From: Escherichia virus TH44
Length of the DNA: 64,000 nt
Strand: one strand, 5' to 3'
Sequence record: MT446415.1
In this document: positions 9,402-62,586 of the stretch, piece after piece
How the letters are laid out: each line of letters begins with the position of its first letter
Position numbering within the stretch: position 1 is the first letter of the stretch
Notes under the pieces: model-generated
Seen by the model: only the letters and a program-made list of their open reading frames with translations
Databases searched by the model: none
What the model was told of the DNA's origin: nothing
Translations under genes and position numbers: made by a program

Positions 9402-10092
<691 letters not shown>

Positions 10093-10152
10093 TGTACAAA
10101 TGAGTGTAGGTGCAGTATTATGCACCTACGTCAACGAACAAACGGAGTTAAA

Positions 10153-10485
10153 ATGAACATCAAAACTTACAACGAGTTTTTAGCCGAATCCGCCATCAAT
10201 GAGACCAAATCAATTGATGATAGTGAAGGCTCTCTGAAATTTGGTTTATCCAAAAATGCAGATGGTGTTTTCTTTCAGATTGGTAATGAACGTTTTCAAA
10301 CGTCCAAATATTCCAAAGCTGCAGTTGAAGCTGTCCTGAAATCTGGTGGCAAGTGGAAAGGCAAAGAAGGTACTAAAGAAATTGGTATCGCTGTTGACGG
10401 TGGTATGGCTTATTTTAAAATTGGCGATGAACAATTTATTATGTCTGCTCGCGGGCGTAAAGAACTGGCAAAACTTTATAAATAA
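10153..10485 (+). CDS. CTS-tagged internal-protein-like protein
   Basis: Starts MNIKTYNEFLAES (T4 internal-protein capsid-targeting motif); ATG after ggag; track ORF starts upstream at 10120. Confidence 0.65.
   Translation: MNIKTYNEFLAESAINETKSIDDSEGSLKFGLSKNADGVFFQIGNERFQTSKYSKAAVEAVLKSGGKWKGKEGTKEIGIAVDGGMAYFKIGDEQFIMSARGRKELAKLYK
10477..10484 (+). promoter_or_regulatory. T4-type late promoter TATAAATA
   Basis: Exact octamer overlapping stop of previous gene, 9 nt before the 10494 CTS gene. Confidence 0.5.
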
Positions 10486-10493
10486 GGTTTCTT

Positions 10494-10766: not shown

Positions 10767-10774
10767 GATTTCAA

Positions 10775-11074
10775 ATGCAAACGCTCCATGAATTTTTAGT
10801 AGAAAACAATTACCTGGCAGAAGCAAAAACCTGGCCTCTGGGTCTTCAGAAGAAAAACACTTTCAAATGGGTTGACTTCAAAGGTAAAGGTGACGAAGAA
10901 GATTTTATGCAACTGCGTAAAAATGGTTATACCTTCCTTGACTCCAACTATAACAAAATTACCTCTTTTAGTCAGAAGTCAAGCATTGCCTTCATTGAAA
11001 CTGGTAAGAACTCTCCTAAAGATATTTCTGACGACTTCGCCGCTTATGGTGTAATTCGTGGCGGTAAGATGTAA
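10775..11074 (+). CDS. CTS-tagged internal-protein-like protein
   Basis: Starts MQTLHEFLVEN; C-terminal ...YGVIRGGKM tail shared with the 24785 gene. Confidence 0.6.
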   Translation: MQTLHEFLVENNYLAEAKTWPLGLQKKNTFKWVDFKGKGDEEDFMQLRKNGYTFLDSNYNKITSFSQKSSIAFIETGKNSPKDISDDFAAYGVIRGGKM

Positions 11075-11083
11075 ATAACACAA

Positions 11084-11104
11084 GGGGATAATTATCCCCT
11101 TTTT
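11084..11104 (+). terminator. rho-independent terminator
   Basis: ggggataattatcccc palindrome followed by TTTTT. Confidence 0.7.
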
Positions 11105-11120
11105 ATGGCTTGGAGACAAC

Positions 11121-11363
11121 ATGAAAACTTATCAAACATTTATAACAGAATCTTCTCATGGTATGGAAGTTAAACTTGGTCAAGCCCTTGCTGAAGCTGA
11201 GCGTTTGTTTGCACGCATCAAAGAACTTGCTGATTCCGTAGATGCATCATCTTTTAAAGGTGACCAAGGCAAAGTTAAAGCTCTCCTCGCTCTTTGTTCA
11301 GACGCGGGTGAAATTGCTAAGAATGGCACCAAGATGAAAAAACGTCTGGAAGACTTAAAATAA
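11121..11363 (+). CDS. CTS-tagged internal-protein-like protein
   Basis: Starts MKTYQTFITES. Confidence 0.65.
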   Translation: MKTYQTFITESSHGMEVKLGQALAEAERLFARIKELADSVDASSFKGDQGKVKALLALCSDAGEIAKNGTKMKKRLEDLK

Positions 11364-11393
11364 GTATACGCGATGGGATAACTGCATTATAAT
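11364..11393 (+). promoter_or_regulatory. early-promoter cassette (gtatac-N18-tataat) with gggataa/ttatccc inverted repeat around the -10
   Basis: Sigma70-like spacing; followed by conserved leader tatcccatcaactactggagacaacATG. Confidence 0.55.
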
Positions 11394-11418
11394 TATCCCA
11401 TCAACTACTGGAGACAAC

Positions 11419-11697
11419 ATGAAAACTTATCAAGAATTTATTAACGAATCAATTAGTCACCCGGATATGCTGGAAGACCTGAAAGGATATCTGATGGTTA
11501 AGGCCAAACCGGTTGATGGTGGCGCATTTGAGTTGTTTCTTGTTAAAGGCGAAAACGGTCCTGATAACAAGAAAGTTTCAGCAATGATGTTGACTAAAGG
11601 TTACAAAGTCAGTTCTTCCTGGAATGCTCCATTCACTTACGCGGTAAGCCCTCGTGAACTGAAAAAAGTTAAAGCTGGGCAATATACAAAAATTTAG
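11419..11697 (+). CDS. CTS-tagged internal-protein-like protein
   Basis: Starts MKTYQEFINES. Confidence 0.7.
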   Translation: MKTYQEFINESISHPDMLEDLKGYLMVKAKPVDGGAFELFLVKGENGPDNKKVSAMMLTKGYKVSSSWNAPFTYAVSPRELKKVKAGQYTKI

Positions 11698-11726
11698 TGT
11701 ACGTGATGGGATAACTGTAGTATGAT
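11697..11726 (+). promoter_or_regulatory. early-promoter cassette (gtgtac-N18-tatgat)
   Basis: Same architecture and leader as the 11364 cassette. Confidence 0.55.
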
Positions 11727-11751
11727 TATCCCATCAACTATTGGAGACCAC

Positions 11752-12006
11752 ATGAAAACTTATCAAGAATTTATTACTGAATCTGCAAATACAAAAGTTG
11801 AGTTTGCTTATGTTGGTTCGCCGCGTGGCAGTTTTTCCAATGAGGAATTCCGTCGTTCACTGGACAATTTCATGCAGTTAAGTGCTGAAGTATCGCATGA
11901 TGGTCGTTATGACATCGTTACTATTAGCGGTTCTGAAGACCTTATCAAAAAGTGGCACAAGCAGAAAGATGTTGAGATGCGTTACTATCGTATCCCTAAA
12001 AAATAA
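11752..12006 (+). CDS. CTS-tagged internal-protein-like protein
   Basis: Starts MKTYQEFITES at internal ATG of track ORF 11722. Confidence 0.7.
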   Translation: MKTYQEFITESANTKVEFAYVGSPRGSFSNEEFRRSLDNFMQLSAEVSHDGRYDIVTISGSEDLIKKWHKQKDVEMRYYRIPKK

Positions 12007-12035
12007 GTGTACTTTTAAATGGGATAGTGTATAAT
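12007..12035 (+). promoter_or_regulatory. early-promoter cassette (gtgtac-N17-tataat)
   Basis: Followed by leader tatcccatcaactactgaggagaataaaATG. Confidence 0.55.
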
Positions 12036-12063
12036 TATCCCATCAACTACTGAGGAGAATAAA

Positions 12064-12249
12064 ATGAAACGTTGCGAATTAATTAGAAATGTTACTGCCC
12101 TTGTTGCTGTTACCACTTTTGGTTTTAACATGTTTGCTGGCTTTATGTTGAATATGCTTTCAACTTCTGAGAATATAATCTCTTTAGTAGTTGCATTTTT
12201 AATTGGTTCAATCTCTTTCGTTATGGATAAAATCTCTAAAGGTGAGTAA
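12064..12249 (+). CDS. small hydrophobic protein
   Basis: 61 aa, predicted membrane helices; cassette-driven. Confidence 0.55.
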   Translation: MKRCELIRNVTALVAVTTFGFNMFAGFMLNMLSTSENIISLVVAFLIGSISFVMDKISKGE

Positions 12250-12250
12250 A

Positions 12251-13113: not shown

Positions 13114-13234
13114 CAAAAACGCGTTATTATTAATAAGTACCCTCTATTACCAAAGGTTCTTCCCTCAAAGAACCTTTCATAATAGCATGTGCTATTAATC
13201 AAACTTACTTTACTTAATTTTACTTGAGGTGTTT

Positions 13235-13504: not shown

Positions 13505-13509
13505 TTTTA

Positions 13510-13583: not shown

Positions 13584-13585
13584 CC

Positions 13586-13662: not shown

Positions 13663-13677
13663 ATTACTGAGGATATT

Positions 13678-14110: not shown

Positions 14111-14111
14111 A

Positions 14112-14119: not shown

Positions 14120-14150
14120 TTAACAACAACCCTAATAATGGAAAAACAAA

Positions 14151-15178: not shown

Positions 15179-15179
15179 C

Positions 15180-15201
15180 AGCCCGCATTGCGGGCTTTTT
15201 T
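15180..15201 (+). terminator. rho-independent terminator
   Basis: agcccgc-attg-cgggct followed by TTTTT. Confidence 0.75.
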
Positions 15202-15238
15202 ATACCCCGAATAAATTTGAAATTTTCTTCAAAAAGTA

Positions 15239-15268
15239 GTGTACATCCGAATTGACCCGGCGCATAAT
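15239..15268 (+). promoter_or_regulatory. early-promoter cassette (gtgtac-N18-cataat)
   Basis: Followed by leader gattccatactgagttac...ggagaaataaaATG. Confidence 0.55.
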
Positions 15269-15319
15269 GATTCCATACTGAGTTACACACTGAATCAAAC
15301 AAAACTTTGGAGAAATAAA

Positions 15320-15745
15320 ATGAACTTTCTGACCCTGACCTCTGCATTCTCTGTTACCCGCATCACCAACAAAATGGTTGCTGACGAAGTATGTGAAATC
15401 TGCATTCGTGAAGATGCACTTATCCATCTGACTTCAACCCAGATTGTTGCCATTGCCAAGTCCCTTAATTCTGAACTGAAGGTAAACACCAAACAGTCAA
15501 AAGAATCTATCATTGAATTAATCCAAGCTGAAATGATTGAATTCCCAATTGAAGAAGTTAAAGAAGAAAAAATCCAGTCCAAATCTGGTAATGCTCGTGA
15601 CATTTGCTTCCAGGCATTTGCAGAAATTGATATGAATGATAATGCAGCTCGTCGCGCTCTGATTGATGTTCTGGTTACCACCCATGATATCAAAAAGACT
15701 GTTGTTCAGTCATATGCTTCCAACTTCCGCAAAGCTCAAAAATAA
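15320..15745 (+). CDS. hypothetical protein
   Basis: Starts MNFLTLTSAF after the cassette leader; C-terminal module shared with the 16198 gene. Confidence 0.6.
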   Translation: MNFLTLTSAFSVTRITNKMVADEVCEICIREDALIHLTSTQIVAIAKSLNSELKVNTKQSKESIIELIQAEMIEFPIEEVKEEKIQSKSGNARDICFQAFAEIDMNDNAARRALIDVLVTTHDIKKTVVQSYASNFRKAQK

Positions 15746-15756: not shown

Positions 15757-15786
15757 GTTTTACTTCCAGATGGGATAATGTATAAT
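15757..15786 (+). promoter_or_regulatory. early-promoter cassette (gtttta-N18-tataat)
   Basis: gggataa/ttatccc repeat around the -10; same leader. Confidence 0.5.
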
Positions 15787-15827
15787 TATCCCATACTGAG
15801 TTACCAAATAAAACACTGGAGAATAAA

Positions 15828-16124
15828 ATGTTTAACGCACCTGCATGGCACGCTACCCAAGCTCAAGAAGAAAACAAAGCAATCGTTTCTGCTAAAATTG
15901 AAGCTCAACTGAATGAATTGTGTGAAACTGCTTCTGAAGAAGTTGTTGCAATCATCAAACAGTATCCTGCATCCAACTACTCCCTGGCATGCATCAAAAC
16001 AGAAATGGTTAACTTGTGGCGTAAGAACAAGAAAACTTTCTTGGGTATGCAGTACCAAGCAATCGCGTCTGCAGTAGTAAACATGTATGACTTTGAAGTT
16101 TATTTCCCAACTTCTGAAAATTAA
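15828..16124 (+). CDS. hypothetical protein
   Basis: 98 aa ORF after cassette leader. Confidence 0.6.
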   Translation: MFNAPAWHATQAQEENKAIVSAKIEAQLNELCETASEEVVAIIKQYPASNYSLACIKTEMVNLWRKNKKTFLGMQYQAIASAVVNMYDFEVYFPTSEN

Positions 16125-16125: not shown

Positions 16126-16155
16126 GTGTACTTTGGAATTTAACTAAGACATAAT
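16126..16155 (+). promoter_or_regulatory. early-promoter cassette (gtgtac-N18-cataat)
   Basis: Same architecture. Confidence 0.55.
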
Positions 16156-16197
16156 GATTCCATACTGAGTTAACAAATAAACAAACGGGATAATAAA

Positions 16198-16641
16198 ATG
16201 AAAACTTCAAAACTGGTTAAGTATGTTAAACTGGCATTAAACAACTCTTCTGAAGCTGAAGCACAATCCGCAGCACGTATGTTCTTCAAACGTCTGACAG
16301 CTGAAGGTATTTCATTTAACCCGGCAGTATTTGGTATCACTCGTGGCGAAGCTGCTAAACTGGCAACTCTGGCAGGTAAAATTTTTAAAGGTCTGAATGA
16401 TGGACAGGTTAAACCAGAAGTTAAACCTACTCCTAAAGCTGAACCAAAAGCTGAACGTAAGGCACCTAAACGCTCCGGTATGAGCAACAAAGATTTATGC
16501 TATGATATGTTCAAAACTGTTAATATGTCTAATGGTGCCGCTCGCAGGGCTGTTATTGATATGATTGTGCGTGAGTTTGGATTCAACAAAGCATCAGTTC
16601 AGTCTTATGCTTCCAACTTCCGCAAAGAATTTGAAATTTAA
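16198..16641 (+). CDS. hypothetical protein
   Basis: 147 aa; C-terminus ARRAVIDMIV...VQSYASNFRK parallels the 15320 gene. Confidence 0.6.
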   Translation: MKTSKLVKYVKLALNNSSEAEAQSAARMFFKRLTAEGISFNPAVFGITRGEAAKLATLAGKIFKGLNDGQVKPEVKPTPKAEPKAERKAPKRSGMSNKDLCYDMFKTVNMSNGAARRAVIDMIVREFGFNKASVQSYASNFRKEFEI

Positions 16642-16652
16642 TTTAAAAGGGG

Positions 16653-16682
16653 GTATACAAGCCCCCTGCTTTAAGGCATAAT
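16653..16682 (+). promoter_or_regulatory. early-promoter cassette (gtatac-N18-cataat) inside hairpin gggggtatacaagccccc
   Basis: -35 sits in the loop of a 5-bp G/C stem directly after the upstream stop. Confidence 0.5.
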
Positions 16683-16723
16683 GATTCCATACTGAGTTAC
16701 ACAATAAAACACTGGAGAATAAA

Positions 16724-17029
16724 ATGAAATTCATCATCAACCTGGCGCTTGTTGACTTTGATAAAACTGGTAATTTCGCATCTGCTGAAAATATGATTCG
16801 TAACACCAAGTTCAAAGTGCAAGTCCAACAGGCGGTAGCAAAAGAGTTCTTTACTGATAAATTAACTAACGTTGTTAATCACCTGAATGTGCAAGTTAAA
16901 TTTACTCGTGAAGCGGAAACTACTGTTGCATTTGATTTTGACTGCCAATACCATGATGAATATGTTCGCCGCATCCTGGATATCGTGTCTGACGAACTTT
17001 ATTATGGTGTACAGGAAAACAAAATCTAA
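16724..17029 (+). CDS. hypothetical protein
   Basis: 101 aa ORF after cassette leader. Confidence 0.6.
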   Translation: MKFIINLALVDFDKTGNFASAENMIRNTKFKVQVQQAVAKEFFTDKLTNVVNHLNVQVKFTREAETTVAFDFDCQYHDEYVRRILDIVSDELYYGVQENKI

Positions 17030-17101
17030 ATTAGTGCTTTAATGGGAACATGATAGTATGTTCCCTGGATAATAAAACATTAACCAACTGAAGGAAATAC
17101 C

Positions 17102-17695
17102 ATGAATACTTTAAAGAAACTTGTTGAATTCATCCGCTCCAAACTGGGTACTGCAATGGCACAAAACCTGTCTATTGAAGACCAATATACTAAAGCTGCT
17201 TCTACCCTGATTGACAAGATTACTGAGCTCCAGACTGCCCATGTTAAGTCTGTTAATGAAGAAAAACGCATCCGCGAGTTAGCGAATGAAAAAGACCAGC
17301 TCGCCGCTTCAAAAGAGCGTGAAATCCGCAAACTGATTTCTGATGGTGCAGATGTTCAGGTCCATGCTAAACTGGGTCTTCTGTATCGTCGCACTGCTAA
17401 ACAACTTCGTAAGAAGGCAGATGATTATGTTGAAATGCGTAATGAAATTAAATTGAAAGTTAAAGAGCTGGATGACTCTCGTCAGGAACTAGCTGTTAAA
17501 CTGGAATACATCCGCGAAACCCGTAAGGTGTCTGCACTGGGTATTGCGACTGCAGATGATGTTGTTGAAATCGCTGCATTGACTAAGATTGATATTGAAG
17601 ACACCCTGATGCGTGTTGAAACCTTCAAAGGCCCACAGGTTGGTGTGGATACCACGTCCGCGGACATTGAAGAATACATCAATTCACTTAAGTAA
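17102..17695 (+). CDS. hypothetical coiled-coil protein
   Basis: 197 aa, charged heptad-rich sequence. Confidence 0.6.
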
Positions 17696-20258: not shown

Positions 20259-20288
20259 GTGTACAAGCCTAAAGAAACGTAGTATCAT
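20259..20288 (+). promoter_or_regulatory. early-promoter cassette (gtgtac-N18-tatcat)
   Basis: Preceded by perfect 7-bp palindrome tatcaca-agga-tgtgata (20217-20234). Confidence 0.5.
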
Positions 20289-20316
20289 TATCTCGTCAAC
20301 TAATGAGGAAAATATT

Positions 20317-20484
20317 ATGTATAATGTTCTTATTGTTTTTGTCACTCACCCGCAAGGTGGAGTAAGACAGAATACTTCTCAAGTGGTTCAATTTTCTTCA
20401 CTAGAGGCCGCCAATCTTGCTGCCTCACGAATTGAAGCGAAAAAATCGGCACTTGGAAAATATGAAGTAACTCGTCTTTACTAA
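20317..20484 (+). CDS. small hypothetical protein (55 aa)
   Basis: Below track cutoff; ATG after leader aatgaggaaaatattATG, which also precedes the 20498 and 21517 genes. Confidence 0.45.
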   Translation: MYNVLIVFVTHPQGGVRQNTSQVVQFSSLEAANLAASRIEAKKSALGKYEVTRLY

Positions 20485-21457: not shown

Positions 21458-21516
21458 GTATGTACATCCAAGTGGGACCATGACACAATGGTCCCACAAT
21501 CAATGAGGAAAATATT

Positions 21517-22203
21517 ATGAACAGTCCAAAAACTTTTAATTCTCAAGCTCGTGCAGTAGGCGGATTTGCAGGTCATATTTCTAATGATGATATTAAAAAC
21601 GAGCCTATGTTCTTTAACTGTGATTTGAATTTTGCTGCACAAAATGGCGGTCCTATTACTCGTAGCTTTATTACTAATCTCCCTGATGAGTGGAAAGCCG
21701 CTGAATGTGTATTTGATTCTCGGGTTCATATGTTGATGCCTGGTTGGTATCCTGCTATCCCAGGGTATCATCATGACGATGTACCACGCCCAGATATTCC
21801 GGTTGGTCAACACTTTATTACTGCAGGGCAACCTGATTATGATAATCCTCGTTACCATTCTGAACATATTCTTGGTCTTGTTAACGCTGATGTGTGTCCT
21901 ACTTATTTTGCAACCGGAACTGCACAATTTAGTCAGATTCCTGAAGGCGAACTTATCTATCGCCAGTGGCATAAAGAAGTTCTGGAAAAAATTGAGTCCA
22001 ATGAATTAACCAAGTGGGATGCTCCTGACCGTACGTTGCTCCAGTTTGATTGGCAGACATGGCATACAGGTTCTCGCGCAGTAAGTAATGGTTGGCGCTG
22101 GTTTGGTCGCGTATCTCGTAAAACTGACCGCGTTAATAAAATCACCAATGAAATTCGCGTTAATGCTCAAGTATATCTGGAATTCCCTATGGAGGGCTGG
22201 TAA
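21517..22203 (+). CDS. hypothetical protein (228 aa)
   Basis: Preceded by hairpin gtgggaccat...atggtcccac and the shared leader. Confidence 0.6.
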   Translation: MNSPKTFNSQARAVGGFAGHISNDDIKNEPMFFNCDLNFAAQNGGPITRSFITNLPDEWKAAECVFDSRVHMLMPGWYPAIPGYHHDDVPRPDIPVGQHFITAGQPDYDNPRYHSEHILGLVNADVCPTYFATGTAQFSQIPEGELIYRQWHKEVLEKIESNELTKWDAPDRTLLQFDWQTWHTGSRAVSNGWRWFGRVSRKTDRVNKITNEIRVNAQVYLEFPMEGW

Positions 22204-23994: not shown

Positions 23995-24264
23995 ATGAAA
24001 ACGTATCAAGAATTTTTGGCTGAATCTGTATTAAATGAATCAGATGAAAGTCGCATGGCATTTTTAGCTAAGAAAGAAGGCTTTGAGTTTACTTCTATTA
24101 AAAAAGTTAATGGAACTTCATTTAAAGTTGGTGATTGGACCTTTGGTAACAAAGGAAATGGCCAGTGGCAAATTGTAGATAAATCTGGCAAAGAAGTGGA
24201 TTATTTGTTTAATCAGAAATTGGGTGATATCGCTAAACTTATGGGTCAATACTCTAAGAAATGA
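23995..24264 (+). CDS. CTS-tagged internal-protein-like protein
   Basis: Starts MKTYQEFLAES. Confidence 0.7.
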   Translation: MKTYQEFLAESVLNESDESRMAFLAKKEGFEFTSIKKVNGTSFKVGDWTFGNKGNGQWQIVDKSGKEVDYLFNQKLGDIAKLMGQYSKK

Positions 24265-24293
24265 TGTACATCTCCAAACGATAGGGTTATAAT
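24264..24293 (+). promoter_or_regulatory. early-promoter cassette (atgtac-N18-tataat)
   Basis: Leader ccctatcaactacggagaataaacATG before denV. Confidence 0.5.
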
Positions 24294-24319
24294 GACCCTA
24301 TCAACTACGGAGAATAAAC

Positions 24320-24736
24320 ATGACTCGTATTAATTTAACCCTGGTATCTGAACTTGCCGACCAACATCTTATGGCTGAATACCGTGAACTTCCTCGCGTG
24401 TTTGGTGCGGTTCGTAAGCATGTGCAAAATGGTAAAAAGGTTTCTGACTTTAAAATCCCATCATCTTTTCTTTTAGGGACTGGTCATGTCACCTTCTTTT
24501 ATGATAAACTTTTGTTCCTTAAAAACCGCCATCAAGAACTTATTGCGGAATGTTTAAAGCGAGGGTTTAACATAAAAGATATTTCTACCCAGGATTTAAA
24601 TGATATTCCTGATGAATGGAAGAATGATTATCAACCATCAATCTGGTCAATTGAAATCAGTCAAGCCAGACTGAATGAGAAAATTTCTCAAAAGCCTACC
24701 TGGTACAAATACTATGGGAAAGCTGTGTACGCTTAA
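24320..24736 (+). CDS. denV: endonuclease V (pyrimidine-dimer DNA glycosylase)
   Basis: 138 aa; [35 protein letters not shown]...[13 protein letters not shown], near-identical to T4 DenV. Confidence 0.96.
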
Positions 24737-24754
24737 TTAAAAAGGTTGTATAAT
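24725..24754 (+). promoter_or_regulatory. early promoter (gtgtac-N18-tataat)
   Basis: Overlaps denV 3' end; TG immediately before the -10. Confidence 0.5.
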
Positions 24755-24784
24755 GATTTTATCAACCAAACAATGGAATATAAA

Positions 24785-25048
24785 ATGAAAACTTATCAAG
24801 AATTTATTACTGAATCTGCCAAAGCTCCTGCTGGTTCTTTTAAAGTTCGCGCCTTCGCGGGTGATGCTGAAGACTTTGGCACCATGAAGCGTAACGGTTA
24901 TTCTTTCTTTGGCGGAGATGGTAAAGAAATTGTAACCTATGCAAAACGTCGCGAAATCGCATTTGTGGTTGCTGGTAAGAAAGTTGATGTTGACGATATT
25001 GAATGGGACTTTGAGACCTTTGGTATTGTTTCTGGCGGTAAAGCATAA
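24785..25048 (+). CDS. CTS-tagged internal-protein-like protein
   Basis: Starts MKTYQEFITES at internal ATG of track ORF 24746; C-terminal ...FGIVSGGKA tail shared with the 10775 gene. Confidence 0.7.
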   Translation: MKTYQEFITESAKAPAGSFKVRAFAGDAEDFGTMKRNGYSFFGGDGKEIVTYAKRREIAFVVAGKKVDVDDIEWDFETFGIVSGGKA

Positions 25049-25050: not shown

Positions 25051-25079
25051 GTTTACTTTATGATGGGATAGTGTATAAT
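25051..25079 (+). promoter_or_regulatory. early-promoter cassette (GTTTAC-N17-TATAAT)
   Basis: Best match to a T4 early promoter in the window; gggata/ttatccc repeat; conserved leader. Confidence 0.6.
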
Positions 25080-25107
25080 TATCCCATCAACTACTGAGGA
25101 GAATAAA

Positions 25108-25305
25108 ATGTTAACTTATAAAGAATTTATGAAAGAAGTTAAAAAACTTAAAAAGACTTCTGGTGATGTTAAAATTGAAATCCATGGCCAAACCGTAAAT
25201 GCGGTAGCGGATGGTCAGGCATTAGTTCTTTATAGTGATAAAGACCAAGAATTTCGCGAAGCACAAAAGAAAAAATTTACCGTGTGGCTCAAAAAAGCTG
25301 TTTAA
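25108..25305 (+). CDS. CTS-like small basic protein
   Basis: Starts MLTYKEFMKEV. Confidence 0.6.
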   Translation: MLTYKEFMKEVKKLKKTSGDVKIEIHGQTVNAVADGQALVLYSDKDQEFREAQKKKFTVWLKKAV

Positions 25306-27409: not shown

Positions 27410-27410
<1 letters not shown>

Positions 27411-27439
27411 TGTACAAGCAGGTTGAAATGAGTTATGAT
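27410..27439 (+). promoter_or_regulatory. early-promoter cassette (gtgtac-N18-tatgat)
   Basis: Leader tatcccatcaaacaaaaggagataatcATG. Confidence 0.5.
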
Positions 27440-27466
27440 TATCCCATCAAACAAAAGGAGATAATC

Positions 27467-27925
27467 ATGACTACTATCGATTCAAGTGTTTACATTCGCC
27501 GCAATAAACTTCGTCGCATTTTTGAAACGGAGTTCCTCAAAATTAATAATGCTATCAACAAGGCTTGTAAAGAAGCAGGCCTTGAAGCATTCTTCATTAA
27601 GTACAGTCCACACCTGTTGGACCGTGCAATCCAACGTGAAATTGATGAACAATATGTTTTTGACTTGTTTGGAAAAATCACACCACATGTAAAAGAAATC
27701 GTTGAATTCCTGGAGATGAAACCACTCCCGGAAGTTGAAGCACAAATTGACCCGAATGTGAACTATCGTCCACTTCGTCTGGAAATCACAGACAAGAACC
27801 TGTGGTTAGGAATGACAGTTAACCCAGCTCTTCCTGGGAAGTCTCCGACCATGTGTTGTCGTATGGCGTTTGTTAACTCTAATCGTCTGGAAGGAAAAAT
27901 TAGCACAAAAGTGATTTATATCTAA
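27467..27925 (+). CDS. hypothetical protein
   Basis: 152 aa from ATG after aaggag. Confidence 0.6.
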   Translation: MTTIDSSVYIRRNKLRRIFETEFLKINNAINKACKEAGLEAFFIKYSPHLLDRAIQREIDEQYVFDLFGKITPHVKEIVEFLEMKPLPEVEAQIDPNVNYRPLRLEITDKNLWLGMTVNPALPGKSPTMCCRMAFVNSNRLEGKISTKVIYI

Positions 27926-31286: not shown

Positions 31287-31313
31287 AGGTCTGCCTTCGG
31301 GTGGACCTTTTTT
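31287..31313 (+). terminator. rho-independent terminator with UUCG tetraloop
   Basis: aaggtctgcc-ttcg-ggtggacctt then TTTTT; ~90-bp block repeated at 60581-60670. Confidence 0.75.
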
Positions 31314-31381
31314 CATTTAGGGGGTTTACAACACCATAAAAAGGGTGTACTATTATCCCATCAACTACTGAGGAGAACACA

Positions 31382-31585
31382 ATGAGAATTAAAAATATCA
31401 AGATTGATGCAGTTAATACTGGTGATGAGGTTGTTATCTATCTTAATGATTATGCAATCTTTATGGACAGTGCCACTGATGAAGAAGTGGTTGAACTCTT
31501 ACAGAAAGCTCCATTTGAACTGTGTGAAGAAGATGCTACCCATCTTTCATCAGCAATTTTCTCATTATCATATGTGGTGGAATAA
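31382..31585 (+). CDS. hypothetical protein
   Basis: 67 aa after conserved leader. Confidence 0.55.
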   Translation: MRIKNIKIDAVNTGDEVVIYLNDYAIFMDSATDEEVVELLQKAPFELCEEDATHLSSAIFSLSYVVE

Positions 31586-34791: not shown

Positions 34792-34814
34792 GGACCCTTC
34801 GGGGTCCTTTTTTA
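34792..34814 (+). terminator. rho-independent terminator
   Basis: ggaccc-ttcg-gggtcc followed by TTTTTT. Confidence 0.75.
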
Positions 34815-34826
34815 TTTTAAAAAGTA

Positions 34827-34856
34827 GTGTACAACCAGATGGTCATGAGGCATAAT
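34827..34856 (+). promoter_or_regulatory. early-promoter cassette (gtgtac-N18-cataat)
   Basis: Leader gattccatactgagttaccaaataaacaaacggagaataaaATG. Confidence 0.55.
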
Positions 34857-34897
34857 GATTCCATACTGAGTTACCAAATAAACAAACGGAGAATAAA

Positions 34898-35104
34898 ATG
34901 TTAGAATTAATCAAAGCTGCTGGTGAAAAAGGTCTGATGGTTAACACTCGTGACCCAGAACAACGTCAAGCATTTGGTGAGTTAAAAGCCAAAGGGCTGG
35001 TTAAAGCATCCCTTGGTATTGGTAATGCTTTGCGTGTGACTTTGACCCCTGCAGGTAAAGCAATGTTCTTCCCTAAACCATTACCAAAACGTCGTCGCAA
35101 GTGA
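34898..35104 (+). CDS. small basic protein
   Basis: 68 aa, C-terminal KRRRK. Confidence 0.55.
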   Translation: MLELIKAAGEKGLMVNTRDPEQRQAFGELKAKGLVKASLGIGNALRVTLTPAGKAMFFPKPLPKRRRK

Positions 35105-35415: not shown

Positions 35416-35445
35416 GTGTACATAGTATGGGGATAGACGTATAAT
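35416..35445 (+). promoter_or_regulatory. early-promoter cassette (gtgtac-N18-tataat)
   Basis: Leader gttcccatactgagttaccaaatactggagaataaaATG. Confidence 0.55.
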
Positions 35446-35481
35446 GTTCCCATACTGAGTTACCAAATACTGGAGAATAAA

Positions 35482-36006
35482 ATGGAAGCCAAATCAATCT
35501 TTAATCTGATTAATTACAATAATGGTAATTTTAAATCAGAAGCACAAAGTAAGTTCTTTAATGATGTTGCTTGTGCAGGCGAGATTACAGTATCAGGTGG
35601 TCAGACTTATAAAAACGCCTGGAACTGGATTGTGACTGTTGATTCAGTTGGTATTGTTGATGTGTATAAAAACACCAACAAAAACCGCTCTTTGTTCTGG
35701 TCAAGAGAGACTAATGCAGAATATCAAGCGGCAAGAGCAAAGAAAAATATGCCTACTGAATCTGATGTACAAAACATCAAATCAGATATTCAATATTATG
35801 ATGGTCTGATTGCTGAACAACAAGCGGTGCTTGATAAGTTCAATGAAATCAAGGCGTGTAAAGAGATTCCTGAATTCATGAGGGAATCAGTTAATGAACA
35901 ATACAATCTCACTTCAGAGCGTATTGAAACCTATACCAAACAAAGAGCAGAGCGCCAGGTACTCCTTCAGAAGTTTGAAGAGCGTTTAAAGACGGTTCTC
36001 GCATAA
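35482..36006 (+). CDS. hypothetical protein
   Basis: 174 aa. Confidence 0.6.
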   Translation: MEAKSIFNLINYNNGNFKSEAQSKFFNDVACAGEITVSGGQTYKNAWNWIVTVDSVGIVDVYKNTNKNRSLFWSRETNAEYQAARAKKNMPTESDVQNIKSDIQYYDGLIAEQQAVLDKFNEIKACKEIPEFMRESVNEQYNLTSERIETYTKQRAERQVLLQKFEERLKTVLA

Positions 36007-38104: not shown

Positions 38105-38162
38105 TGTTTACTTCCAAGGATGGAGGGAGTATAATGAATTCCTACTTTATGAGGAGAACACT

Positions 38163-39152
38163 ATGACACGTAACGAATATATCCAGGCCTTTAACTCAAC
38201 TATCGACACAAAAGTAAAACCATTAATAGGTGAATCGGCTATCCTTTTAATTATCAATTACTGGTTAAATCAGATTGACTCGACGATTGTTGCATCTGGT
38301 CGCTTCAAGAAAGACATTGCAACTATTGCGAGTCGTGCTGGTAACGATGATATCAAGAAAACTTTTAAAAGTTCCCGAGTCCTGGCATACCTGGTTAATA
38401 AAGACCTTCTTAATAAGTTTGGTGTTGAATCCAGACGTGGTAAAGGTACAATTGGATATCATTGGTTTGGTGATGTTGAAAAATACTACCTTGATAAACA
38501 AGGCTATACTGTTTCTGAATTCGCACATTGCTGGGCTCGTGAATTCAGAGATAACAAAATGTCTATCATAAAATCAGCGACAAAATTGATGGATGGCGAT
38601 TATCGCACTATCTGTCATTTGGCAGAGCACATGGTCAAGGTTAAAGAGTCTGGTAAAAACCAGGTAATTATTACAGTTAATCATGAGTTCTTTACTCCAG
38701 TGGCTACTCCAGAAAATGTCAAAAAGTATTTTGATGCTGCGAGCACGCTTACTTCACAGATGCAGTGTGCCCTTAACTATATGCGCACTGTTGAAAAAAT
38801 TAAAGTAGACCCTATCACCAGTACTCGTGGTTGGAAAGGTTGGAAAATTGTGGTGACATTGCGTGAAGTTAAATGCGCAAAACAACCAACTGATGCAGAA
38901 ATTTATAAAAAGAAAAGTGAGGAAATTATGAATGCACCGCAAGAAACCACCCTTGAAGACCTGATTGATAATCTGAACAATGAGCCAGTGAAACAAAAAG
39001 CGCCTGAAATTATTGCTCTGGAAATGGCGTATAATAAAGCTCTTGCTGTTAATAAAAAGGCAACTGAAGATTATACAAAAGCCAAGCGACTTTGGGAAGA
39101 ATCAACTAATCGTCTGGATAAACTGGAACAGGCTCTGGAGCTGCTGAAATGA
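38163..39152 (+). CDS. hypothetical protein
   Basis: 329 aa. Confidence 0.6.
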   Translation: MTRNEYIQAFNSTIDTKVKPLIGESAILLIINYWLNQIDSTIVASGRFKKDIATIASRAGNDDIKKTFKSSRVLAYLVNKDLLNKFGVESRRGKGTIGYHWFGDVEKYYLDKQGYTVSEFAHCWAREFRDNKMSIIKSATKLMDGDYRTICHLAEHMVKVKESGKNQVIITVNHEFFTPVATPENVKKYFDAASTLTSQMQCALNYMRTVEKIKVDPITSTRGWKGWKIVVTLREVKCAKQPTDAEIYKKKSEEIMNAPQETTLEDLIDNLNNEPVKQKAPEIIALEMAYNKALAVNKKATEDYTKAKRLWEESTNRLDKLEQALELLK

Positions 39153-42877: not shown

Positions 42878-42883
42878 AAAGGG

Positions 42884-42913
42884 GTGTACAAGCCCCTTTG
42901 AATGATGTATCAT
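42884..42913 (+). promoter_or_regulatory. early-promoter cassette (gtgtac-N18-tatcat) in hairpin ggggtgtacaagcccc
   Basis: Leader tatcccatcaactactgatgaggaaaacataATG. Confidence 0.5.
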
Positions 42914-42944
42914 TATCCCATCAACTACTGATGAGGAAAACATA

Positions 42945-43121
42945 ATGACTATCCAAGATAAAGAAATTAAAGTCAACCAGTATTATTCAATCAACGGCAA
43001 AGCTGTTCTAGTGACTGGAATATCTAGCCTGGATGTGTGGTATACCATAATTGACCTTAATATTAAAATGATTTGTGACCGTGGTGTATTTTGTTCGATA
43101 GCTAAGGAAATCAAATTATGA
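42945..43121 (+). CDS. small hypothetical protein (58 aa)
   Basis: Below track cutoff; ATG after cassette leader. Confidence 0.45.
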   Translation: MTIQDKEIKVNQYYSINGKAVLVTGISSLDVWYTIIDLNIKMICDRGVFCSIAKEIKL

Positions 43122-43872: not shown

Positions 43873-43944
43873 AAACCAACGGGGTCATGGTATAATGACC
43901 CCAGGATAATAAAATTTTAATTGAATGAGACTGAGGAATATATC

Positions 43945-44271
43945 ATGACTGCATCTATCACTAACACCATCGCTAATTTCGCATTTGCTAAAGTTAACAC
44001 TCTGATGAAATCTGGTTTCGTTACCCCTGAGATTCTGGACCAGTGGGAAGGCGATGTACAGAAGTTGATTATTGCAGAAGGTCAGACAATGGGTAAAGCT
44101 CGCATTCGTGAAAGCCTTGTCCAGTATATCCTGAATGAATTTGATGTAGTAGCGTTTGGTCTGCCGCTTCCACGTGAAAACAAAGAAGTTTCTGACAAAG
44201 CCATCAAGCGTATGAACTCCCAGCGTAAGAAAGGTTTTGTTGACCTGAAAATTATTAAGGGTGCGAAATGA
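43945..44271 (+). CDS. hypothetical protein
   Basis: ATG after gagga; track ORF 43921. Confidence 0.55.
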   Translation: MTASITNTIANFAFAKVNTLMKSGFVTPEILDQWEGDVQKLIIAEGQTMGKARIRESLVQYILNEFDVVAFGLPLPRENKEVSDKAIKRMNSQRKKGFVDLKIIKGAK

Positions 44272-56340: not shown

Positions 56341-56370
56341 GTTTACAACGGCAATGGATTGCCGTATTAT
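56341..56370 (+). promoter_or_regulatory. early promoter (GTTTAC-N18-TATTAT) with palindromic spacer
   Basis: Directly after gene 43 stop; spacer contains cggcaat-gg-attgccg. Confidence 0.5.
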
Positions 56371-56407
56371 TACCTCATCAACTGATGAATAACTTAAGGA
56401 TATTAAA

Positions 56408-56650
56408 ATGGAAACATTAATTGCGGGTACTGTTGTTCTTGGTGCAGGTTCTTTCTTCCTGGCTGCACTGGCATATTTTCTGCCGTGGATTATCGCGCTG
56501 CTGCGTGGTACCAAAAGTAATTGTGGAATCTTCTTTGTTAACCTCCTGATAGGTTGGACAATGGTCGGATGGTTTATTGCATTTATCTGGGCACTCGTTG
56601 CTGAACGTAAATCAAACGCACAAGTAATTATCATCAAGGAAGCAAAATGA
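56408..56650 (+). CDS. small inner-membrane protein (Imm-like position)
   Basis: 80 aa, two TM helices; lies where T4 has imm. Confidence 0.55.
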   Translation: METLIAGTVVLGAGSFFLAALAYFLPWIIALLRGTKSNCGIFFVNLLIGWTMVGWFIAFIWALVAERKSNAQVIIIKEAK

Positions 56651-60581: not shown

Positions 60582-60600
60582 AGACCTTCGGGTCTTTTTC
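60581..60600 (+). terminator. rho-independent terminator with UUCG tetraloop
   Basis: aagacc-ttcg-ggtctt then TTT; start of ~90-bp block also at 31283-31381. Confidence 0.7.
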
Positions 60601-60670
60601 ATTTAGGGGGTTTACATCCTCATAAAAGGGGTGTACTATTATCCCATCAACTACTGATGAGGATAATAAA

Positions 60671-60919
60671 ATGTTATTAGTTAATGTGCATTACCAGTTC
60701 AAATCTGAAGAAGCTCTCCAAAAGTATGCTGACATTTGTGAGCATAATAAAAGAACAGCTGCCATTGTTGGTCTGAAGCCTTTTAAAATTTTGGATTGCT
60801 CCTTGAACAGAGCAAGGCGCTGGTGTAGTGTTGCCTGTCATGCTTCAGTTGAAGGGAATGATTATTTTTTCATTACTTTCAATGCACAAGATTTTCATTT
60901 AATTAATGAATTAAAATAG
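60671..60919 (+). CDS. hypothetical protein
   Basis: 82 aa after conserved leader. Confidence 0.55.
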   Translation: MLLVNVHYQFKSEEALQKYADICEHNKRTAAIVGLKPFKILDCSLNRARRWCSVACHASVEGNDYFFITFNAQDFHLINELK

Positions 60920-60948
60920 TGTACAAACCCCTTGTCTTAGGACATAAT
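60919..60948 (+). promoter_or_regulatory. early-promoter cassette (gtgtac-N18-cataat)
   Basis: Leader gattccatactgagttacacaataaacc... Confidence 0.55.
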
Positions 60949-60998
60949 GATTCCATACTGAGTTACACAATAAACCAACTGTTAAAAAGGAAAACCAT

Positions 60999-61301
60999 AT
61001 GTTTAATCAAACCGATATGAACCGTTACTATTTTGGTCAGTTCGCTCGCCGTGATGAAAACTGTGCTGCTCTTATCGCATCAGGCATTCAAACTGGTAAA
61101 TTAATAAAGCTCAAAAGCGATGTTCAACCTTCATCTGTTCGCAGCTCTCTTCGTGAGTATCTGCTTGCAGGCGGTGAAGTGTACGTCATCGCTGAACCTT
61201 TTGTTAACGTGTGTGATGATTACACAATTAGTGTGACTGTTATGCACCCAACTACTGGGAAAATTCGTTGTCTGACTATGCACAACTATGAGTTGGCGTA
61301 A
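60999..61301 (+). CDS. hypothetical protein
   Basis: 100 aa. Confidence 0.55.
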   Translation: MFNQTDMNRYYFGQFARRDENCAALIASGIQTGKLIKLKSDVQPSSVRSSLREYLLAGGEVYVIAEPFVNVCDDYTISVTVMHPTTGKIRCLTMHNYELA

Positions 61302-61311: not shown

Positions 61312-61331
61312 GGGGCTTACAGCCCCTTTTT
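61312..61331 (+). terminator. rho-independent terminator carrying the -35 of the next promoter
   Basis: ggggc-ttaca-gcccc then TTTTT; followed by TGtTATAAT (61336-61344). Confidence 0.65.
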
Positions 61332-61370
61332 CTTATGTTATAATGACTCTATCAACTACTGGAGAATAAA

Positions 61371-61688
61371 ATGAAAACCATTGATTGCAAGGCAGAATAC
61401 AAAGTTTATTATCATGGGTCAAGCTCTAATGCTGGAATCCAAAATATGCTTTGTCCTCCTGATGCAACTGGTGTTCTGTCAGAAGTTGGACGTAAGAAAA
61501 ATTTAGGGCGTGTGTTTTTTACTGAAGATATTGGTTTGGCGCGTATCTATGCAGGAAGAGCAGCTCGCTCATATGGAGGAGAACCCCGTCTTTATCGTGT
61601 GATTGCACCTGTTGACGTGGTTTGTTTAAATGACACTAAAGGCGCAACAGTTTATCACGCCGCATGGGCGTTTTGTGAGGAAATCTAA
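61371..61688 (+). CDS. hypothetical protein
   Basis: 105 aa after leader ctatcaactactggagaataaaATG. Confidence 0.55.
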   Translation: MKTIDCKAEYKVYYHGSSSNAGIQNMLCPPDATGVLSEVGRKKNLGRVFFTEDIGLARIYAGRAARSYGGEPRLYRVIAPVDVVCLNDTKGATVYHAAWAFCEEI

Positions 61689-62234: not shown

Positions 62235-62264
62235 GTGTACATCAAAGGGATAATGCAGTATATT
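62235..62264 (+). promoter_or_regulatory. early-promoter cassette (gtgtac-N18-tatatt)
   Basis: agggataa/ttatccct repeat; leader atcaactactgaggagattgaaATG. Confidence 0.5.
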
Positions 62265-62292
62265 ATCCCTATCAACTACTGAGGAGATTGAA

Positions 62293-62586
62293 ATGAAAAA
62301 GTTATTAATCGCAGCAATTCTTACCGTAGCATCATGTGGTACAGCTCCAGTTACTGCTGGACTTGATAAAGACCTTTGTGAGTGGTCTATGACTGCGGAC
62401 CAGACTGATGTTGAACACCAGATTTATGCTGACATCATGAACATTACTAAACGTGACCGCCCAGATATGGTTAAAGAAGTATCTGACCAACTGGCTTCTG
62501 GTGACGTTATGCAGTATAACTATGTTCTGTATTGCGATGCTTCATTTGACAACAGCAAGATTGTTCAATGGGTTACAGGTGAATAA
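62293..62586 (+). CDS. lipoprotein
   Basis: Signal peptide with lipobox MKKLLIAAILTVASC. Confidence 0.6.
   Translation: MKKLLIAAILTVASCGTAPVTAGLDKDLCEWSMTADQTDVEHQIYADIMNITKRDRPDMVKEVSDQLASGDVMQYNYVLYCDASFDNSKIVQWVTGE

Follow-up and report, generated by a model that had tools for sequence, protein, structure and literature searches.

The interval 11084–12063 is the ipI–trna.4 locus of the phage. Internal protein (IP) genes stand here in tandem, each preceded by an intergenic cassette and each encoding the conserved N-terminus MKTYQEFI. The interval begins with a predicted intrinsic terminator after the ORF 10775–11074, whose arms are the same as those of the hairpin that encloses the −10 element in the cassettes. 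Of the three cassettes that follow (Table 1), the one at 11364 has its hairpin at 11372–11402 with the arms GGGATAA/TTATCCC, the one at 11697 leads into the gene of an internal virion protein (ATG 11752), and the one at 12007 has its T4 ortholog in the early promoter that precedes trna.4. Farther upstream, the cassette at 10092 precedes a product with an IP-like N-terminus (MNIKTYNEFL), and its −10-enclosing hairpin (10106–10129, arms GTAGGTGC/GCACCTAC) is weakened in most relatives. The ipI–trna.4 locus gains or loses IP units among relatives, with junction homology of 30–93 bp, and in TH41, TH15 and TH54 a breakpoint falls on the terminator at 11084.

The cassettes of this locus belong to a family that is spread over the window, by which we mean the whole 64,000-nt stretch analyzed. 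A recurrent module of about 20 copies had been described in the first-pass annotation, and it is real. There are 24 full copies: the 19 listed earlier, all of which are present, and five more, at 10092, 21461 and 38106 and at the promoters 31324 and 60610 inside the duplicated blocks of about 90 bp. Two related −10/hairpin junctions exist besides, at 17033 and 43880. The 19 listed sites consist of a −35 element G(T/C)(G/T)TAC (with the variants GTTTTA at 15757 and ATGTAC at 24264), a spacer of 17–18 nt, a TAtaAT-like −10 element, and either of two leaders running up to the ATG. All copies are on the coding strand and each ends in the Shine-Dalgarno sequence (SD) and ATG of an ORF of at least 55 aa.

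The repetition far exceeds what base composition would produce. The pattern G[TC][GT]TAC-N17-18-[TC]A[TC]NAT is found 19 times on the plus strand and not at all on the minus strand, when 0.46 per strand is expected from dinucleotide shuffles. Against the same kind of control, the pattern TTATCCCATCAACTA has 10 matches with up to two mismatches (0.31 expected), CCATACTGAGTTA has seven exact copies and nine matches with up to two mismatches (1.5 expected), and GGAGAATAAAATG has 10 with up to one mismatch (0.23 expected). Many copies share identical runs of 20–48 nt, the cassettes at 12007 and 25051 having 48 nt exactly in common; the runs shared by non-overlapping random segments reached at most 11 nt (mean 6.8). 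The duplicate of about 90 bp reported earlier (31283–31381 and 60581–60670) is confirmed by alignment, and its two copies are the units of terminator plus class A cassette at 31288 and 60582. Over the cassettes the promoter consensus is aaAAa...GTgTACa and gTATaATgATcCCATcaacta, with CCC usually preceding the predicted A(+1). The tract upstream is richer in A+T (76%) and in A (43%) than the window (60% and 31%), and the leader is 19–45 nt long, A-rich (49% A) and unstructured (mean z +0.8).

Table 1. Cassettes, predicted terminators and related modules in the window
Feature	Coordinates	Strand	Elements
Cassette	10092..10155	+	−35 GTGTAC 10092; −10 TATTAT 10116; ATG 10153
Intrinsic terminator (predicted)	11084..11104	+	GGGGATAATTATCCCC + TTTTT; after ORF 10775–11074
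Class A cassette	11364..11421	+	−35 GTATAC; −10 TATAAT 11388; ATG 11419 (MKTYQEFI...)
Class A cassette	11697..11754	+	−35 GTGTAC; −10 TATGAT 11721; hairpin 11705–11735; ATG 11752
Class A cassette	12007..12066	+	hairpin 12019–12043; RegB/S1 consensus GGAGAATAAAA 12054; ATG 12064
Predicted terminator, then class B cassette	15180..15322	+	terminator 15180–15196 + T-run; −35 15239; −10 CATAAT 15263; ATG 15320
Class B cassette	15757..15830	+	−10-enclosing hairpin 15770–15794; GGAGAATAAAA 15818; ATG 15828
Class B cassette	16126..16200	+	ATG 16198
Class B cassette	16649..16726	+	−35 (16653) in loop of G+C hairpin 16649–16666; GGAGAATAAAA 16714; ATG 16724
Related module	17033..17104	+	−10 TAGTAT inside hairpin 17044–17065, arms GGGAACAT/ATGTTCCC
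Degenerate class A cassette	20259..20319	+	ATG 20317
Cassette	21461..21519	+	weak −10 CACAAT inside hairpin 21472–21497, arms GTGGGACCAT/ATGGTCCCAC
Cassette upstream of denV	24264..24322	+	−10 TATAAT 24288 inside hairpin 24280–24302, GATAGGGT/ACCCTATC
Cassette upstream of internal head protein gene	24725..24787	+	no hairpin; ATG 24785
Class A cassette	25051..25110	+	hairpin 25062–25088; GGAGAATAAAA 25098; ATG 25108
Class A-like cassette upstream of regB	27410..27469	+	SD GGAGATAATCA; ATG 27467
Predicted UUCG terminator, then class A cassette	31288..31384	+	terminator 31288–31307 + T-run; −35 31324; ATG 31382
Predicted UUCG terminator, then class B cassette	34792..34900	+	terminator 34792–34807 + T-run; −35 34827; GGAGAATAAAA 34888; ATG 34898
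Class B cassette	35416..35484	+	hairpin 35424–35456; GGAGAATAAAA 35472; ATG 35482
Early-type promoter with its own leader	38106..38165	+	GTTTAC-N18-TATAAT; ATG 38163
Class A cassette	42881..42947	+	−35 (42884) in loop of hairpin 42881–42896; ATG 42945
Related module	43881..43947	+	TGn-extended −10 TGGTATAAT inside hairpin 43881–43902, GGGGTCAT/ATGACCCC; ATG 43945
Cassette after gene 43, upstream of imm	56341..56410	+	hairpin 56349–56364 between −35 and −10; ATG 56408
Predicted UUCG terminator, then class A cassette	60582..60673	+	terminator 60582–60595; −35 60610; ATG 60671
Class B cassette	60919..61001	+	ATG 60999
Class A cassette	61312..61373	+	−35 (61315) in loop of predicted terminator 61312–61326 + TTTTT; GGAGAATAAAA 61361; ATG 61371
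Class A cassette upstream of spackle	62235..62295	+	hairpin 62246–62270; ATG 62293

The cassettes had been said to flank nearly every novel ORF, which overstates their reach: they precede about 24 of about 129 plus-strand genes, and known T4 early genes are among these (denV, regB, imm, spackle (sp), a goF-like gene at ATG 60671, and internal proteins). All but one of the products belong to existing PHROG families. When the whole window was scanned against Rfam, two tRNAs were the only hits, and the cassettes matched no known RNA family. A scan of 9000–28999 with a generic σ70 consensus gave 65 sites against 54.6 expected, no overall enrichment; the same scan nonetheless recovers several cassettes as TGTACA-17-TATAAT.

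The repeated intergenic module is very probably the cassette by which T4-like phages, here a Gaprivervirus, ordinarily express their early genes: a stem-loop, a host-type promoter predicted to be strong, a short leader, and a ribosome site that doubles as a putative RegB target. Early promoters of T4-like phages have GTTTAC at −36 to −31, A-rich sequence at −40 to −44 and C at −3 to −1 (Nolan 2006, PMC1524935), and these features of a T4-type early promoter (Pe) are present in the cassettes, from which promoter activity is predicted. By analogy with T4, the A-rich UP-like tract, the −35 element GTKTAC[A], the 17-bp spacer, the TAtaAT −10 element and the CCC before a putative A start would be recognized by the unmodified host σ70 RNA polymerase directly after infection.

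A second signal, missed in the earlier description, lies where the leader is conserved at its 3′-end: the sequence there, GGAGAAUAAAA, is identical to the published cleavage consensus of T4 RegB/S1 (Durand 2006, PMC1702504). Seven cassette SDs carry it without a mismatch, and the seven plus-strand matches to GGAGRAYARAA in the window are, every one, cassette SDs. GGAG is part of the SD in 16 of the 24 cassette genes and in 8 of 105 others (p = 3e-9); the SDs of eight cassettes (GAGG, GGAA, GGAT or GGGA) are off the RegB consensus. The gene regB itself (27467–27925) follows the cassette at 27410; in T4, regB is early and self-cleaved. To judge from the letters, then, the cassette SDs have what is expected of a RegB/S1 target: a single-stranded GGAGRAYARAA in an early initiation region of a phage that encodes RegB. 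The A-rich, unstructured 5′-UTR of 19–45 nt would thus lead into an optimal target, and since the GGAG of the SD is embedded in it, the phage's own RegB could inactivate cassette messages a few minutes into infection, if it acts as in T4.

Do the cassettes also serve to shuffle genes? The window was compared with eight relatives, from which it differs by 61 structural differences, 23 touching a cassette and 38 not. Cassettes, which make up 5.6% of the sequence, hold 13 of the 69 breakpoint clusters (p = 1e-4 by raw sequence length). This enrichment was set aside as a yardstick, since gene junctions of any kind account for 90 of the 103 breakpoints. When cassette junctions are compared with other gene junctions in the same relatives, the excess is not significant (15 of 25 against 42 of 95, p = 0.18; junction-level Fisher tests p = 0.32, 0.18 and 0.18). 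Nor are genes merely preceded by a cassette significantly more variable (8 of 23 against 21 of 98, p = 0.18), whereas genes with a cassette on both sides are (6 of 10 against 23 of 111, p = 0.012). The earlier expectations that breakpoints would coincide with cassettes, and that flanked ORFs would vary among isolates, stand only in part: some joints lie inside cassettes, and the variability is that of doubly flanked genes. Cassettes hold six of the seven junctions that have at least 20 bp of homology (6 of 23 events against 1 of 38, p = 0.009).

Individual rearrangements are instructive. Chimeric cassettes exist; their joints fall variously at the edge of the −35 element, in the leader and in the SD. 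In five relatives a chimera, made up of the 15757 cassette and the 16126 cassette, stands in place of the latter, and the unit 15757–16126 is missing from five of the eight. Breakpoints fall at the 5′-edge of the −35 element at 24264, 34827 and 62235, and on either side of the degenerate cassette at 20259 in several relatives. The upstream half of the 17033 module is MotA-box-like here and early-type (GTGTAC/GTTTAC) in TH15, TH40, TH22 and TH54. The block 60582–61308, two units of cassette plus ORF, is missing from four relatives and replaced in TH54, and the 65-aa ORF at ATG 25108 is present in one of the eight. The promoter region at 38106 is identical in every relative compared.

The cassettes might be expression signals and nothing else, alike through common descent and through selection for one optimal promoter, leader and RegB site. 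Gene-sized indels would, on this view, end between genes in any event, and the junction tests, the genes merely preceded by a cassette and the 38 events without one all agree with it. We consider it possible though the less likely account, as it leaves aside the concentration of long homologies in cassettes, the turnover of doubly flanked genes, and the crossovers inside the leader (16126 and 61315) or at the −35 edge. Identity also extends over spacer and leader positions without known constraint, as in the 48-nt run mentioned above, and in RB49 and phi1 the formation of mini-circles from one cassette of this kind to another has been demonstrated experimentally (Arbiol 2010, PMC2839356). We therefore prefer the view that cassettes do contribute to shuffling but explain only part of it. 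Because many copies share runs of 20–48 identical nt, they could act as homology patches at which phage recombination, as known from T4, would delete, insert or swap the ORF between two of them. Most gene gain and loss in this data set occurs at ordinary junctions without cassettes.

The hairpins vary from copy to copy. In 15 of the 24 promoter regions the folding z-score is below −2. The −10 element is covered by the hairpin in 10 copies and the −35 element in three; the hairpin stands between the two in one copy and upstream in four, and about seven copies are without any. The first-pass annotation spoke of a GC hairpin terminator, often with a UUCG loop. A G+C hairpin followed by T's is indeed found at eight sites (11084, 15180, 16649 with a weak tail, 31288, 34792, 42881, 60582 and 61312) and not elsewhere, and UUCG loops occur at three sites only. 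By T4 precedent, in the third of the copies where such a hairpin with a T-run lies upstream of the −35 element or holds it in the loop, it would end upstream transcripts. The −10-enclosing hairpins lack a U-tract, so the name terminator is doubtful for them. These hairpins, of 7–12 bp and in about half of the copies, would form only in RNA that reads through from upstream, and might therefore act as an attenuator or as a 3′-end stabilizer of the upstream message.

That they are selected as RNA is suggested by how they vary. Among relatives, 19 hairpin variants preserve pairing and 8 break it, where 30% would be expected to preserve it (p = 2e-5), although the counts are small and the relatives compared are not independent. 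One pair of the hairpin 21472–21497 passes, in the relatives, through the series C-G → U·G → U-A. A small alignment gave 100% pairing and three doubly changed pairs, but it was built manually, and the sequences chosen for it were ones whose hairpins had been noticed beforehand. Between copies, at least six unrelated arm sequences occupy the same register around the −10 element. The stems differ between copies and change compensatorily, which speaks for a structure formed in RNA and against an operator bound by protein.

A bolder proposal, which we regard as doubtful, is that the −10-enclosing hairpins are doubly coded, as promoter spacer, −10 element and discriminator in DNA and as a selected stem-loop in the read-through RNA, and that with the RegB site about 20 nt downstream they form a unit of mRNA punctuation. 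If this were so, RegB would cut the SD, exonucleases would trim the RNA back to the hairpin, and the upstream message would be stabilized. The downstream cistron would be translatable only from the transcript of its own promoter, and the CCC conserved at −3 to −1 of T4-like early promoters would be kept partly for pairing with a GGG of the spacer.

The hairpins could instead act in DNA, as cruciforms or single-strand hairpins that either aid promoter opening or cause indels through replication slippage or cuts by endonuclease VII. The arms do overlap the stretch of DNA that is melted when the open complex forms, and the 11084 terminator, with the same arms, is a recurrent breakpoint. Stem-loops of this kind are described as blocking sequencing polymerases, and a recombination protein recognizing them has been speculated upon (Arbiol 2010, PMC2839356). 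We find a role in DNA improbable nevertheless: the tolerated changes yield G·U, which is unstable in DNA, and many breakpoints miss the hairpin, falling instead within the leader or on the edge of the −35 element. Still harder to defend is the dimeric protein site that the first-pass annotation considered possible at the inverted repeat GGGATAA...TTATCCC, where a DNA-binding protein would repress or activate early promoters. This version of the repeat is present, overlapping the −10 element, at six to seven cassettes, and how T4 shuts off its early promoters is only incompletely understood. Elsewhere, however, unrelated arms take the same place (GTAGGTGC, GTGGGACCAT, GATAGGGT, GGGAACAT and GGGGTCAT), as they do in T4 (GATAGGTA-type and ATAGGGT); the loop ranges from 3 to 11 nt; pairing is kept through G·U intermediates, which matter to RNA and not to duplex DNA; and about seven cassettes lack a hairpin altogether. 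Just as implausible is a mobile element that spreads by a mechanism of its own, be it MITE-like or acted on by a site-specific recombinase: the class B leader is limited to Gaprivervirus genomes (8–13 places in each) and the leader variant ACACAAT to two loci in the window and TH41, but there are no terminal inverted repeats, target duplications or associated recombinase, all copies are oriented with transcription and end at a start codon, and crossovers are scattered through the cassette, as in homologous exchange.

The early-gene expression cassette, which remains our preferred reading, has clear counterparts. Composite elements of promoter and stem-loop, called PeSLs, have been described in RB49 and phi1 (Arbiol et al. 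2010, PMC2839356) and in T4/PST and KVP40/nt-1 (Comeau et al. 2014, PMC4122927). An earlier comparison with the RB49 group was right about the composite of stem-loop, early promoter and leader, and wrong about the group: the phage is a Gaprivervirus (VR7/SP18 group) and its promoter is of the T4 type, whereas RB49 has TTGACA. Among published elements the nearest are therefore the PeSLs of T4/PST and those of the T-even IP locus. The promoter of the window matches the T4/PST consensus TTTACW-N17-TAYWAT (Comeau et al. 2014, PMC4122927). As far as those two accounts of PeSLs go, the likeness covers the AT-rich tract, the σ70-type early promoter, an SD and ATG, the intergenic position, many repeats concentrated among small non-essential genes, and the presence at some indel joints; it also covers the variable placing of the stem-loop, which may be upstream of the promoter elements, between them, or over either one. 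PeSL stem-loops are sorted into five positional subclasses, and the class is further characterized by termination or attenuation at the stem-loop and by a promoter that is strong in vivo. With a predicted σ70-type promoter facing the downstream gene, a stem-loop, an AT-rich tract and SD plus ATG, the cassettes in all likelihood belong to this class, whose architecture was already known.

There are differences as well. The window is from the genus Gaprivervirus and has two sharp leader classes, of which class B is genus-specific (8–13 copies per genome). Its SD is the exact RegB/S1 consensus, a feature not mentioned for PeSLs in the available text of Arbiol 2010 and Comeau 2014, and breakpoints are not significantly more frequent at its cassettes than at ordinary gene junctions. 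No published promoter analysis of VR7-group phages was found in the collection of papers searched. The comparison puts numbers on the claim that PeSLs drive shuffling: the cassettes supply the joints with long homology, and doubly flanked genes turn over faster.

T4 early promoters (Miller et al. 2003; Hinton 2010, PMC2988021; Nolan 2006, PMC1524935) share the GTTTAC-type −35 element, the A-rich UP-like tract, the TATAAT −10 element and the C-rich −3 to −1, and are likewise found in front of early genes and small ORFs. The window differs in preferring G at the third position of the −35 element (GTGTAC), and identity between its copies runs much further downstream of the −10 element than the quoted T4 consensus. 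The layout at ipI and trna.4 of T4 GT7 is the same, down to −10-enclosing inverted repeats and an identical leader, CTATCAACTACTGAGGAGAATAAAATG; at this place a Tequatrovirus record annotates an overlapping "T4 early promoter" and "rho-independent terminator". The RegB/S1 sites of T4 early mRNAs (Durand 2006, PMC1702504; Uzan & Miller 2010, PMC3014915) resemble those of the window in that a single-stranded 11-mer, GGAGAAUAAAA, lies where early genes initiate translation, and regB itself is behind such a promoter. The non-consensus SDs of eight cassettes set the window apart, and cleavage in its phage is a prediction.

In closing, the cassettes reveal no new kind of system. Their catalog marks the early transcription units and the likely RegB-controlled genes of this phage group, and it flags small early ORFs swapped among isolates, including new internal-protein candidates. 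The polymorphism of the T-even IP locus (Repoila et al. 1994, as summarized in Arbiol 2010, PMC2839356) has the same tandem IP genes and the same gain and loss of units at ipI–trna.4; in the window, cassettes are found at about 18 further sites outside the IP loci. The architecture of PeSLs and T4 early promoters reaches the genus Gaprivervirus, where it is unusually homogeneous: the leaders fall into two classes, and the predicted RegB sites match the consensus exactly.

Full cassettes, i.e., intergenic modules made of a T4-type −35/−10, a leader, an SD and ATG, most with a stem-loop, number 24 in the window (named by −35 start; see table). The layout is present at all 19 positions listed in the first-pass annotation, and the copies of its ~90-bp duplicate (31283/60581) align. 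Over the whole window, a loose −35/−10 pattern matches the + strand 19 times and the − strand 0 times, whereas 200 dinucleotide shuffles predict 0.46 matches for each strand. The leaders are of two types, each near-identical among copies: the class A 15-mer (≤2 mismatches) has 10 matches vs. 0.31 expected, and the class B 13-mer has seven exact copies. GGAGAATAAAATG (≤1 mismatch) has 10 matches vs. 0.23 expected. An exact run of ≥20 nt is common to another copy in 13/24 cassettes, the longest being 48 nt (12007 vs. 25051); non-overlapping control segments have at most 11 nt in common. The repetition can be seen in 11084–12063, where the terminator is followed by three small genes in tandem, each with an MKTYQEFI-like start. 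An almost identical ~55-nt intergenic block, G(T/C)(G/T)TAC, 17–18 nt, TAtaAT, then TATCCCATCAACTACTG(A)GGAG...ATG, precedes genes 2 and 3 and the next gene (12064).

Features of the window and of its alignment with relatives
Feature	Position	Detail
Cassettes 1–12 (−35 starts)	10092, 11364, 11697, 12007, 15239, 15757, 16126, 16653, 20259, 21461, 24264, 24725	+ strand
Cassettes 13–24 (−35 starts)	25051, 27410, 31324, 34827, 35416, 38106, 42884, 56341, 60610, 60919, 61315, 62235	+ strand
Related −10/hairpin modules (2)	17033, 43880	+ strand
Hairpin terminator	11084–11104	GGGGATAATTATCCCC+TTTTT
Hairpin arms, common register		GGGATAA/TTATCCC; GTAGGTGC/GCACCTAC; GTGGGACCAT/ATGGTCCCAC; GATAGGGT/ACCCTATC; GGGAACAT/ATGTTCCC; GGGGTCAT/ATGACCCC; T4, GATGAGGTA/TACCTCATC
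CAAGGATGnTATAAT family	36018–36032, 45052–45066, 49992–50006	also in cassette 38106, as its spacer
tRNA genes (2)	13510–13662	Met/Ile2 (anticodon CAT), Arg (TCT)
Loss of unit	11364–11697	junction homology 93 bp
Loss of unit	15757–16126	junction homology 49 bp
Two-unit block	60582–61308	absent from four relatives, replaced in TH54; joints within flanking cassettes
Cassette-free insertion junctions	41933–42068; 40600/40604; 50661/50665; 49979/50026; 23481/23495	

The promoter consensus, aaAAa...GTgTACa – 17 bp – gTATaAT-gATcCC-A, agrees with that of T4-like early promoters (GTTTAC at −36..−31, an A-rich stretch at −40..−44, C at −3..−1; Nolan 2006, PMC1524935), and with TTTACW-N17-TAYWAT, the PST/T4 form of the promoter-early stem-loop (PeSL; Comeau 2014, PMC4122927). 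In T4, early promoters are strong, of the σ70 type and in use immediately after infection (Hinton 2010, PMC2988021). Upstream of ipI and trna.4, T4 GT7 shares this design, with an identical leader, CTATCAACTACTGAGGAGAATAAAATG; there a Tequatrovirus record annotates 'T4 early promoter' and 'rho-independent terminator' as overlapping.

A second recurring family, CAAGGATGnTATAAT, has a (T)GCTTT MotA-box-like motif upstream (three exact copies; 7 matches vs. 0.8 expected at ≤2 mismatches). Most likely these predicted sites serve as middle-mode promoters, their spacer being conserved to an unusual degree. Downstream of the tRNA genes and one small ORF lies a G+C-rich non-coding 233 nt (13918–14150). 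No Rfam match to it was found; its position would suit a stable RNA such as T4 rnaC/rnaD.

The predicted 5′UTRs of the cassettes measure 19–45 nt, contain 49% A and lack structure. A point missed by the first-pass annotation is that the 3′ end of the leader, GGAGAAUAAAA, is the exact cleavage consensus of T4 RegB/S1 (Durand 2006, PMC1702504). GGAGRAYARAA matches the + strand of the window seven times, each time at the SD of a cassette, and GGAG lies within the SD of 16/24 cassette genes vs. 8/105 other + strand genes (p=3e-9). T4 regB is an early gene whose product cuts its own SD; here regB (27467–27925) lies downstream of cassette 27410. Other genes after cassettes encode internal head/virion proteins, denV, imm, a goF-like gene, spackle and ~14 PHROG families of unknown function. 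Cassettes thus mark predicted early transcription units, not novel ORFs specifically: they do not flank nearly every novel ORF, as had been proposed, and precede only ~1/5 of + strand genes, many with known function or family. ORF 25108–25305 (65 aa), the only cassette-preceded gene without a PHROG family, starts with MLTYKEFM, a variant form of the N-terminal motif of internal proteins, and is found in only 1/8 relatives, which makes it a candidate for a new injected internal protein.

At eight sites the hairpin is followed by a T-run. In ~10 cassettes their place is taken by a hairpin of 7–12 bp with the −10 in its loop, its arms differing in sequence and sharing one register. Among 8 relatives, 19 variant pair types preserve pairing and 8 disrupt it; window-wide, the preserving kind accounts for just 30% of substitutions (p=2e-5 for the hairpin excess), although these are low counts from relatives that are not independent. 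One pair varies as the series C-G, U·G, U-A. In a small hand-made alignment 64/64 cells are paired, with three pairs changed on both sides; slid controls have only 36–59% paired. The inverted repeat had been read as a possible dimeric protein-binding site, against which the tolerance of G·U argues. This tolerance is suggestive of RNA structure, held at that strength because of the small numbers and related genomes; the RNA would be produced through read-through from upstream.

The terminator stem GGGGATAATTATCCCC (11084–11099) consists of the GGGATAA/TTATCCC arms fused without the promoter loop, and is a recurrent breakpoint in TH41, TH15 and TH54, which together suggest a collapsed cassette. 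The G+C hairpin GGGGGCTTTGCCCCC (17702–17716), adjoining the SD of ORF 17738 on its upstream side without a promoter, is a further stem-loop-only intergenic element.

The window, running from baseplate genes through the ipI/tRNA/e/denV/regB/tk/nrdC/49/nrdD/55/46/45/43/uvsX/41/dmd/sp regions, belongs to a T4-like coliphage of ~170 kb in the genus Gaprivervirus (relatives include EAWsc9, TH41, VR20 and SP18), not to one of the RB49 group. The class A leader occurs in 587 phage records, T4 and PST among them, usually once, at the IP locus, but Gaprivervirus genomes have it at 4–6 places. Class B is essentially Gaprivervirus-specific (8–13 places per genome). Only the window and TH41 have its ACACAAT variant, GAGTTACACAATAAA, at the two loci 16653 and 60919; other relatives have GAGTTACCAAATAAA at 16653. 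This pattern is a hint of copying within the genome or gene conversion among cassettes.

Do cassettes mediate gene shuffling? Alignment with the 8 relatives gave 61 distinct structural differences, 23 with a cassette at one end or more and nine at both. The 15757–16126 loss leaves chimeric cassettes, in which at least two different crossover points are seen. Joints fall exactly at the −35 5′ edge at 24264, 34827 and 62235, and at 17033 one −10/hairpin/leader has upstream halves that differ between phages. Junction homology of ≥20 bp is found in 6/23 cassette events vs. 1/38 others (p=0.009), and genes with cassettes on both sides are more often absent from ≥1 relative (6/10 vs. 23/111, p=0.012). 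Cassettes therefore probably supply patches of homology in some of the events, chiefly in tandem arrays, e.g., IP loci. The proposal of cassette-mediated shuffling would hold to this extent, but breakpoints are not significantly in excess at cassette junctions over other gene junctions among the 8 relatives (15/25 vs. 42/95, p=0.18), nor is absence from ≥1 relative among cassette-preceded genes (8/23 vs. 21/98, p=0.18). Most gene turnover is at junctions without cassettes. At some of these, relatives have insertions of 0.3–2.4 kb, the 2.4-kb one in five relatives; a possibility is that they carry homing endonuclease genes.

In sum, the first-pass observation stands and its interpretation only in part. 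Its suggestion of PeSL-type modules was right, the cassette form being the known PeSL class. All the essentials are already described: T4 early promoters, RegB sites, T-even IP-locus elements (Repoila 1994, as summarised in Arbiol 2010, PMC2839356) and PeSLs. The five PeSL subclasses of Arbiol 2010 already include stem-loops overlapping the −10 or −35, and Comeau 2014 already extends PeSLs to T4/PST. The quantitative breakpoint test tempers the claim of cassette-driven shuffling. What sets the present case apart is its genus, its two homogeneous classes of leader, a RegB consensus matched exactly inside the cassette and, as a suggestive result, covariation that preserves pairing in the −10-enclosing hairpins.
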